Positions 1 to 3,101 of a DNA stretch of 19,326 bases are shown in pieces (position 1 is the first letter of the stretch; every line of letters begins with the position of its first letter). The notes under the pieces were generated by a model that saw nothing but the letters and a program-made list of their open reading frames with translations, searched no databases and was not told where the DNA came from. The translations under genes were made by a program, and so were the position numbers. Source of the stretch: a bacterium (GTDB taxonomy: Bacteria; Fidelibacterota; Marinisomatia; Marinisomatales; UBA1611); contig JAYPIC010000032.1 in the NCBI GenBank assembly GCA_038127595.1, positions 1 through 19,326 of the forward strand, given 5' to 3'.

Positions 1-124
1 TTGCTCCCGCCAAGGGTAATTGGTTATCAATGTCGATAATTTTCCCCTTACTGACACCTGTCGAGTCAGAATAGCATATGGATGTAAAAAATAAAAATAG
101 ACTTAAAATAGATTTGATATTCAT
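1..124 (-). CDS. N-terminus (partial, runs off window) of a secreted protein with a carboxypeptidase-regulatory-like domain, probably a TonB-dependent receptor
   Basis: Manual translation from ATG at 124: MNIKSILSLFLFFTSICYSDSTGVSKGKIIDIDNQLPLAGA. A signal peptide is followed by the G-x-I-x-D-x4-P-L-x-G-A motif typical of the N-terminal domain of FCB-group TonB-dependent receptors. Not in the ORF track. Confidence 0.65.
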   Translation of the reverse strand, partial: MNIKSILSLFLFFTSICYSDSTGVSKGKIIDIDNQLPLAGA

Positions 125-243: not shown

Positions 244-804
244 ATGAGCTATCATAAAAAAAATCTTAAAGACCATCTTATTGACATTGCATGGGACATT
301 TGTAAAATAGAATCTTGGCAAAAAGTTAATATGCGTAAGATTGCTCATAAAGCTAATGTTTCGAATACTGCATTTTATAGACATTTTAAAAACAAAAATG
401 ATCTTAAAGCAGAGTTGATTCGAAGAGGTTATAAAATGATTCTTGATGGTAGAAAGGATACTGATACATTTGCTGGTTGGGGCGCCTATTACATAAGGTT
501 TGGCTTAGATTATCCGCATATTTACGATTTAATGTTTGGTAATGTAGATTTAGACATGTCTATTTATCCAGATTTAAAAGAACAACATAATGCAGCTTTT
601 GATGAGGTGTTAGTAGCATTAAAAAATTTTATGCCTGGTGCAATTGAGAAAGACCTCAAGATAAAAGCAATTAATATATGGACCTCTGTTCATGGATTAA
701 TTGGATATTTGAGGCGTGGAGATTTGCAGGATAGTCTATCTGAGGAACTAAAATGGATTGAAAATAACTTAGAAGAGTATTTAAAAATGACAACATTCCG
801 CTGA
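244..804 (+). CDS. TetR/AcrR family transcriptional regulator (WHG-type C-terminal domain)
   Basis: N-terminal HTH 'VNMRKIAHKANVSNTAFYRHFKNKNDL'; C-terminal 'YIRFGLDYPHIYDLMF' and 'WTSVHG'. Confidence 0.92.
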   Translation: MSYHKKNLKDHLIDIAWDICKIESWQKVNMRKIAHKANVSNTAFYRHFKNKNDLKAELIRRGYKMILDGRKDTDTFAGWGAYYIRFGLDYPHIYDLMFGNVDLDMSIYPDLKEQHNAAFDEVLVALKNFMPGAIEKDLKIKAINIWTSVHGLIGYLRRGDLQDSLSEELKWIENNLEEYLKMTTFR

Positions 805-973
805 AGAGATTTTTTTTAGAGTAACAAATATTTTAGCCCTTGATACATTAAACAGAAGAATTAAGCTTGGTATTACATACTTAATTATTTAAAACAATAA
901 TATTAAATAACTATTTCCCGGAACAAACAGTATATTATATCATATATATTTAGAATAGACAGTAATAATTCTT

Positions 974-2152: not shown

Positions 2153-2187
2153 AATTATTTTACTAAGTTTTATTAAGAGGATATATT

Positions 2188-2322
2188 ATGAAAAATTGTT
2201 GTTCTACTAGTTGTAAATGCTGTGATGGCGGTTGCAAATGTGATTGCTGCGATAAAGGTCTTTCATGCATGAAAGGCTGTGTCAGTAATTGTTGTAAAAG
2301 CGATTGTTGCTGCGCTAGTTAA
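2188..2322 (+). CDS. Small Cys-rich peptide, metallothionein-like (44 aa)
   Basis: Manual translation: MKNCCSTSCKCCDGGCKCDCCDKGLSCMKGCVSNCCKSDCCCAS*. 16 Cys, no aromatic residues or His. SD-like AAGAGG at 2175-2180, 7 nt before the ATG. Fills the intergenic gap. Absent from the ORF track, whose shortest entries are 60 aa. Confidence 0.85.
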   Translation: MKNCCSTSCKCCDGGCKCDCCDKGLSCMKGCVSNCCKSDCCCAS

Positions 2323-2327
2323 AAAAA

Positions 2328-3101
2328 TTAGTATTTGAAGTGCTTGATTTTCTCGCCTTCATCTCCAATTTTTGTCATGGCTTCAATGCCCATATCTATA
2401 TGTAGGTCTACATATTTTTGGGTCACATCTTTATCTTTTTCCTCTGTTTTAATTCCTTCCGGTATCATTGGCGTATCACTTACAAGTAGCAATGCCCCTC
2501 TATTAATTTCATTTGAAAAACCAGTGATGAAAATAGTGGCAGTCTCCATATCAATGCCCATCACTCTGATTTTGCGAAGGTATTTTTTGAATTTATTATC
2601 ATGTTCCCATACTCTACGATTAGTAGAATAAATAACGCCGGTTCTGTATTCAATCTCTCTTTCAACTAAAATTCCAGAAACATATTTATGCAGCTTAAAT
2701 GAAGGCATCGCTGGAACCTCTTTTGGAAAATAATCATCACTTGTTCCTTCTCCGCGAATCGCTGCAATTGGCAGAATGAAATTTCCTATTTCTGTGGTCT
2801 TTTTTAACCCTCCACATTTGCCTAAAAACAAAATTCCTTTGGGTTCAATCGCTGATAGAAGATCCATAATAGTAGCAGCATTTGCGCTTCCAATACCAAA
2901 ATTAATGATTCCCAATCCATCTTTATTTATTGATGATGTCATTGGTCCACCAATGCCATTTATTTTTGAGCCAAATCTATCAGCAAATTTTTCAACATAA
3001 TTATGAAAATTTGTTAAGAGTATCCAATCTCCATACTTACTAGGATCTGTGCCTGTGTACCTTCTAAGCCAGTCAAATGCTATGTCTTTCTTTTTATTCA
3101 T
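2328..3101 (-). CDS. amn: AMP nucleosidase (short Bacteroidota/Chlamydia type, PNP/UDP fold)
   Basis: Motifs 'WLRRYTG', 'ILLTNF', 'IINFGIGSANAATIMDLL', 'LFLGKCGGL', 'AIRGEGTSDDY', 'NRRVWEHD', 'DMETAT', 'GALLLVSD'. Confidence 0.9.
   Translation of the reverse strand: MNKKKDIAFDWLRRYTGTDPSKYGDWILLTNFHNYVEKFADRFGSKINGIGGPMTSSINKDGLGIINFGIGSANAATIMDLLSAIEPKGILFLGKCGGLKKTTEIGNFILPIAAIRGEGTSDDYFPKEVPAMPSFKLHKYVSGILVEREIEYRTGVIYSTNRRVWEHDNKFKKYLRKIRVMGIDMETATIFITGFSNEINRGALLLVSDTPMIPEGIKTEEKDKDVTQKYVDLHIDMGIEAMTKIGDEGEKIKHFKY

Follow-up and report, generated by a model that had tools for sequence, protein, structure and literature searches.

Metallothioneins of bacteria and animals

Metallothioneins (MTs) are defined as proteins of about 3.5-14 kDa that are rich in Cys and carry CC, CxC and CxxC motifs (PMC13578184). 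The canonical bacterial members given in Table 1 of that source are about 60 aa long with about 16% Cys; few have been characterised, and they reach about half the Cys density of P0001, the peptide described here. The canonical proteins are further described as having both His and hydrophobic residues, and as carrying a GATA-type zinc finger (PMC10612145). For some marine strains without efflux pumps, a reliance on BmtA has been reported (PMC3323870). The SmtA/BmtA proteins (PF02069) of cyanobacteria and Pseudomonas resemble P0001 in being small, Cys-rich and presumably cytoplasmic. In contrast to them, the 16 copies of the P0001 family are 34-53 aa long with 12-18 Cys (34-38%), lack Phe, Trp and Tyr throughout, contain a single His in one copy and do not match PF02069. 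Judged from these properties, P0001 probably works like a metallothionein and yet stands outside SmtA/BmtA.

MymT of Mycobacterium tuberculosis, a Cys-rich Cu(I)-binding protein of 4.9 kDa, is encoded by a non-annotated ORF (PMC7558416). P0001 is likewise a small Cys-rich product of an uncalled ORF; no family or structure match connects the two. MymT has fewer Cys and is controlled by a CsoR-type repressor, whereas CsoR/RcnR was found in none of five carrier genomes of the P0001 family.

Animal MT domains of the 11/12-Cys and CC-rich types share with P0001 a Cys content above 30%, CC, CxC and CCC motifs, spacers of K, S, G, D and N, and the lack of aromatic residues. The domains compared were echinoid family 4, vertebrate alpha, limpet gamma, mollusc beta1, ascidian and appendicularian, together with Metallothio_5 of Diptera. 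The arrangement CxCC-xn-CxC of the P0001 family recalls the start of the echinoid family 4 rule (PMC5412396). The complete rule (IPR001396), P-D-x-K-C-[VF]-C-C-x5-C-x-C-x4-C-C-x4-C-C-x(4,6)-C-C, was found in 0/16 copies, also when reduced to its Cys, and the same result was obtained with each of the vertebrate alpha, limpet gamma, mollusc beta1, ascidian and appendicularian Cys spacings. The first-pass annotation, made from the sequence of this DNA, had called the Cys pattern eukaryote-like; the likeness holds for composition (34-38% Cys, His-free, rich in CC and CCC) but not for the pattern itself, which matched none of seven published animal motifs in any of the 16 copies. Nothing points to transfer from eukaryotes. 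Convergence on MT domains that arose de novo has been described in tunicate and mollusc papers, and would be the simpler reading of the likeness between P0001 and animal MTs.

The peptide gene and its locus

The window, that is, the whole stretch of 19,326 nucleotides analysed, is a contig (C32) of a 2.0-Mb genome (G000) that is 96% complete. The features around the peptide gene are collected in Table 1. The ORF reads as first annotated: of its 44 aa, 16 (36%) are Cys and none is His or aromatic, and its stop does lie 5 nt from that of the convergent amn gene. The Shine-Dalgarno site and its 7-nt spacer were also confirmed; such sites had been called few, consistent with SD-like words upstream of 215 of 1232 long ORFs in the genome (17%, a crude first-ATG count). 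The Cys pattern is x3-CC-x3-CxCC-x3-CxCxCC-x5-C-x3-C-x3-CC-x3-CCC-x2. Among 34,523 stop-to-stop frames of at least 25 aa in the whole genome, P0001 alone exceeds 10 Cys per 44 residues, and the second-densest frame has 10 against its 16. The opposite strand of the ORF in the same register is interrupted by a stop.

Table 1. Features at the P0001 end of the window
Feature	Position	Strand	Remarks
TonB-dependent-receptor-like gene, start	1..124	-	cut by the contig end; divergent from the lipoprotein gene
TetR-family gene	244..804	+	between the receptor and lipoprotein genes
G(G/T)AACAAA-N13-CAT motif	920..943	+	before the lipoprotein gene; kept in several relatives
Acidic putative lipoprotein, 392 aa	974..2152	+	lipobox-like Cys near residue 20 (from sequence); 35 nt upstream of the peptide gene
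Shine-Dalgarno-like AAGAGG	2175..2180	+	7 nt 5' of the ATG; purine-rich word at this place in orthologs
Metallothionein-like peptide gene (P0001), 44 aa, 16 Cys	2188..2322	+	ATG to TAA
AMP nucleosidase (amn)	2328..3101	-	convergent; NCBIfam PRK07115 above cut-off

The gene order of the genus comprises a divergent TonB-dependent-receptor-like gene, the acidic lipoprotein, the peptide and the convergent amn, with no known metal gene among the neighbours at the window locus. Relatives of the receptor-like protein are 769 aa long and contain Plug and CarboxypepD_reg domains. The TetR gene is absent from this position in those relatives whose contigs reach it and is probably a strain-specific insertion; RNA-library contigs leave it uncovered. 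The motif before the lipoprotein gene is a possible ECF-type promoter.

The lipoprotein gene accompanies the peptide throughout the genus wherever the contig extends that far, and the 35-nt gap suggests that both are probably co-transcribed at the window locus. The lipoprotein contains repeated C-[FY]-x3-YP modules, varies in length from about 300 to 510 aa and belongs to no credible family. A functional linkage between the two was considered and rejected: the lipoprotein occurs in 73/233 genomes of the order, and a Cys-rich ORF follows it at 0/23 loci in other genera.

Absence from catalogues and databases

The first-pass annotation proposed that genes of this type are missed by gene callers, and this is borne out. 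The exact P0001 sequence does not occur among about 15 billion called proteins, nor do five homologs in an exact-sequence lookup, while four genes neighbouring those five homologs are called. The two neighbours of P0001 fall into clusters that count 450 and 744 called proteins, against a cluster of 5 for the peptide, an example of how genes of this kind are lost from catalogues. Called variants amount to this cluster of 5 and three single entries, several of them truncated, run-on or with Cys lost.

For the tested members, Pfam, NCBIfam and PDB contain no match to a described family. P0001 has no Pfam match at E values up to 10, the ciliate, fungal and plant MT models included, and 0/13 family members match NCBIfam; the filters of HMMER penalise Cys-biased peptides and make both searches weak for them. 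PDB sequence searches returned chance matches only (E 0.28 or worse). The PF02069 model finds nothing in the window genome and responds to the positive control in Synechococcus. In the ESM Atlas, the closest cluster is Metallothio_5 at 0.80; this is no more than a lead, as shuffled proteins reach that level one third of the time. An AlphaFold2 model from an 11-row alignment is uninformative (pLDDT 55, pTM 0.26) and has no fold match among 48,161 chains.

Wide protein searches for unfused forms of about this length, with 4 and 5 matches, returned only genus-level variants and one member of a 48-aa type, and a narrow profile gave one match among 1.84 billion protein representatives. No relative was found in IMG/VR viral contigs, 50,697 phage records or 72,556 plasmids, these wide collections being covered by the narrow profile or as called proteins.

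In a full-text literature search that covers few subscription journals, metallothionein was never paired with Marinimicrobia or Marinisomatota. The term was also absent from the matches listed for SAR406, and wider searches with the same coverage of journals found no description of the family. More than 500 mined MTs have been reported in PMC11705764; four supplements of that paper contain no motif match. Its list, or similar sets mined from metagenomes, could hold a member of the family.

Selection and expression within the genus

Orthologs of P0001 are present in 5/8 genomes of the same genus. All 16 Cys are invariant in six genus orthologs, and at five of them the codon switches between TGT and TGC. 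The dN/dS ratio is about 0.08 (0.127/1.65 and 0.047/0.51, NG86), with several ortholog pairs saturated at silent sites. Between the window and G005, the differences by codon position number 3/6/18 and are concentrated at third positions. One very close pair, with two non-synonymous and no synonymous changes, counts against this trend. In metagenomes, 14/14 loci of the P0001 type, taken from 195 pattern stretches, are intact with 44 aa and 16 Cys; Cys were lost or the end was run-on in a few called metagenomic variants (P0032, P0033, P0061, P0063 and P0064). RNA-library contigs span the whole ORF in 3/4 runs from four studies, which establishes its presence in the libraries rather than strand, level or translation; in the other run, X12, the ORF is partly covered. 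The stops, frameshifts and loss of Cys that had been named as signs of a spurious ORF are thus missing from the homologs, which keep their Cys. The P0001 ORF is a real protein-coding gene under purifying selection.

The wider family

A narrow six-row profile matched 6/384 genomes of the phylum, two of them weak non-members. The range first appeared to be limited to the genus, an artefact of sensitivity because this profile overlooked the wider family. In G006, a peptide of 34 aa and 12 Cys was reached via the upstream lipoprotein in the same slot; it corresponds to the 48-aa type minus 13 internal residues. The DNA pattern CxCC-x3-CxC occurs in 204/401 phylum genomes, mostly by chance in other frames, and among the matches listed (the first 150) it exposed 48-aa homologs in another family. 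Wider profiles matched 4/70 genomes of that other family and 4/80 chosen genomes, which consisted of pattern matches and previously unsampled relatives, more distant families being left out.

When P0001 is set against four 48-aa homologs, 15/16 Cys lie in register with no gap, which 0/20,000 shuffles reach, 5 of those 15 being preset by the search pattern. The conserved scaffold is CC-x3-CxCC-x3-C-x-C ... C-x5-C ... CC-x3-CCC. Outside the Cys, P0001 has only weak identity to the other forms, from 3/15 to 7/25 (shuffle p 0.03-0.15); given this and the five pattern-selected Cys, the case for homology is built on the Cys register plus the shared residues K10, G14 and G24. The 48-aa homologs are themselves conserved, with dN/dS of 0.025/0.36 and 0.016/0.28. 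Combining synteny, Cys-pattern and profile searches, the family comprises at least 16 copies in at least 15 genomes, distributed over five genera and two families of one order of Marinimicrobia/Marinisomatota. It is an undescribed family in ocean Marinimicrobia.

Cys counts across the family are 12, 16, 17 and 18, odd numbers included, and a signal peptide is absent from all 16 copies, as judged from the sequences with no predictor. Both features bear on whether P0001 could be a disulfide-knotted mini-protein, secreted or antimicrobial. The high Cys content and the even count of the window form would suit such a protein, and exported-looking C-x3-C-x3-CC repeat proteins of sister genera resemble P0001 residues 27-36. 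Nevertheless, it would have to do without an export signal in any copy and accommodate 17 Cys and CCC or CCCC runs; GG at positions 14-15 is not retained beyond the genus, neither a transporter nor an immunity gene is adjacent, and no PDB match is significant. This makes a disulfide mini-protein quite unlikely. The varying and odd Cys counts and the natural deletion of 13 residues fit a metal cluster better than a fixed set of disulfides. Descent of the peptide from the exported repeat proteins of sister genera is not supported, as the 48-aa forms show CxCxCxCxCC at that place.

Cys-repeat proteins of this exported-looking kind were also noted across the phylum. These proteins (L088:1498-1815 (-) in G025, and L089-L103) are about 70-230 aa long, with a hydrophobic N-terminal segment and one to four C-terminal C-x3-C-x-K-P-CC repeats. 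They occur in 16/301 phylum genomes, 12/26 of this family and 0/4 of this genus, often lie beside a DUF1028 gene and have no Pfam match. One of the genes (L092:1501-1731, G011) shows an internal TAG within the match. They are possibly an exported metal-binding repeat family.

The copies of the peptide gene in G194 and G067, which belong to different families, share 97% DNA identity, whereas that of G194 and its congener G191 share 71%, and several such copies are flanked by hairpin repeats. This suggests a recent transfer, misbinning being the alternative. On one or both sides of the peptide gene, several genomes carry an intergenic repeat of about 50 bp with a GC hairpin, a T run and a conserved purine-rich tail (L146, L165, L172, L173 and L174). 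The repeat is also present at four places in the window genome (C5, C10, C14 and C50). It is REP-like or terminator-like, and possibly linked to gene movement.

Gene contexts and metal handling

Eight distinct gene contexts of the family were recognised, and six of them have no metal gene nearby. In genus g42 (G191 and both copies in G195), the gene after the peptide encodes a GxxCxxC protein that resembles the metal-binding domains of CopA (E 3e-5) as well as CopZ (E 1e-3). This HMA-like neighbour has no Pfam HMA match, and its structure predicted from the single sequence reaches pLDDT 31. Downstream of one G195 copy lies, in addition, a membrane protein that is MerT-like (E 7e-5, below cut-off) and has no relevant PDB match. 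In G066, the peptide is followed by a DoxX/MauE-like gene and by one that matches Pfam HMA (E 6e-12). The chance of an HMA/CopZ-like gene in 2/8 contexts is about 0.001, a rough and post hoc estimate. An 8-bp inverted repeat lies upstream of the peptide in g42 only; terminator-like hairpins bracket the gene in several other genera.

Behind the g42 peptide lies a cassette (G195 L149:246-2263 (-) and G191 L147:2538-3735 (-)) made of an exported-looking Cys-containing protein (G195 only), a CopZ/MerP-like GxxCxxC protein, the MerT-like protein (G195 only) and a barrel-like protein; none of them belongs to a Pfam family. The cassette was not found in the window genome by tblastn. It is a candidate for an undescribed soft-metal transport system.

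A promoter scan for sensor sites gave chance-level results only. A CsoR-like box 5' of the G068 copy was discarded as a single case and because CsoR was not found in the five genomes searched, which do not include G068. Elsewhere, the window genome yields two Fur-family and three ArsR-like matches. It also encodes subunit I of a haem-copper oxidase, three HMA proteins and one RND protein below the CzcA/CusA cut-off. No P1B-ATPase, other P-type ATPase, CDF, ZnuA, BmtA, DUF692 or CsoR was found in this 96%-complete genome, even though it has a haem-copper oxidase. A P1B-ATPase occurs in 10/54 genomes of the family and is scarce with or without the peptide. Its lack is a background feature rather than a specific link, because most genomes of the family are without it. 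The peptide as a replacement for the P1B-ATPase is not supported across genomes, and G067 carries both.

The contexts also bear on several other functions. Short Cys-rich peptides are typical substrates of RiPP pathways, and the genome contains five radical SAM genes above cut-off, as a RiPP precursor modified in trans by MNIO/DUF692, radical SAM or similar enzymes would require. DUF692/MNIO is, however, not found in the genome, the window contig has no radical SAM match, no modifying enzyme was recognised beside the eight contexts (part of the neighbours being family-scanned), and the peptide has no leader/core split; a RiPP precursor is therefore highly improbable. A carrier of iron, Fe-S or another cofactor, rather than of d10 metals, is very unlikely: in g42 the peptide gene has a divergent hemerythrin (HHE) neighbour and in G191 a Moco/Fe-S gene cluster is nearby, but this link is confined to one context, and the peptide has neither a ferredoxin-type CxxCxxC motif nor a match to an Fe-S family. 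Mycobacterial polycysteine ORFs have been described as Cys-sensing attenuators (bioRxiv 10.1101/834739), and a leader peptide of this kind would account for the runs of Cys codons and for the first position of the peptide in a same-strand run in g42 and G066. The amino-acid spacing is conserved, however, though the downstream genes differ and none is a sulfur-metabolism gene. At the window locus this role is excluded because the next gene, amn, is convergent and nothing is left to attenuate. For the family, an attenuator can almost be dismissed.

A thiol/redox buffer or cysteine-sulfur reserve, acting mainly in redox protection or starvation survival with metal binding possible in vitro, agrees with the six non-metal contexts and with the lack of any metal sensor found. 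It also has a parallel in the MT of Pseudomonas, a stationary-phase survival factor dispensable for metal resistance (PMC7387436), which implies that binding need not mean detoxification. On the other hand, the exact Cys spacing over 40 residues in two families exceeds the need of a bulk thiol store, and HMA-type neighbours appear in two contexts, so that a redox or sulfur role as the main function is unlikely.

Proposed function

P0001 is quite likely a putative cytoplasmic metallothionein-like buffer based on metal-thiolate clusters and the representative of a new family distinct from SmtA/BmtA. The low mass, Cys richness and CC/CxC motifs by which MTs are defined are all found in P0001 (44 aa, 36% Cys) and its family (34-53 aa), together with scarce aromatic and hydrophobic residues, no export signal and a Cys scaffold under selection. 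A metal-thiolate cluster fits best with 36% Cys in the absence of a hydrophobic core, with the tolerated deletion and with spacing kept across families. The metallothionein-like reading put forward in the first-pass annotation has thus gained from the intact, Cys-conserved homologs, the lack of a described family and the HMA/CopZ-like genes in two independent contexts.

Cys in the cytoplasm are reduced. Having no export signal, the peptide would stay there with its Cys as thiols. The apo-peptide may be largely unfolded and would take up its fold around soft d10 ions bound in a metal-thiolate cluster. Animal MT domains with 11-12 Cys bind four divalent ions (PMC8476144, Table 1). By this measure, the 12-Cys short form could take up about four divalent ions and forms with 16-18 Cys five or six; for the 16-Cys form this would mean about 5-6 Zn(II) or Cd(II), or more Cu(I). 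Such a peptide could buffer or store these ions in a cell whose small genome yielded neither a P1B-ATPase nor a CDF exporter.

Provided that metal is bound, the physiological metal would be zinc or cadmium with somewhat less than an even chance, copper(I) with a slightly lower one, and mercury, silver or another metal with a small one. Zn/Cd is favoured because the composition leans towards divalent ions, Cu(I) and Hg because of the CopZ/MerP-like neighbours. The K/N ratio was rejected as a predictor of the metal, as it spans 6:2 to 3:5 within the genus; this rule has also been doubted outside gastropods (PMC8476144).

A more far-reaching proposal, which is tentative and rather doubtful as a whole, is that P0001 represents an independently evolved His-free family of bacterial MTs with animal-like Cys density and runs of CCC or CCCC, moving as a single-gene unit between Marinimicrobia families and acting as the main soft-metal buffer in ocean bacteria of small genome size without P1B-ATPase and CDF efflux. 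If this is true, bacteria would have, in the 12-Cys deletion form, their own example of the 12-Cys/4-metal domain that evolved repeatedly in animals. With 12, 16, 17 and 18 Cys, the natural variants of this one scaffold would offer a prokaryotic test of convergence on such domains and are inexpensive to make and assay. Finding a His-free family in this marine lineage, which is abundant and uncultured, would broaden what is known of the chemistry of metal buffering in bacteria.
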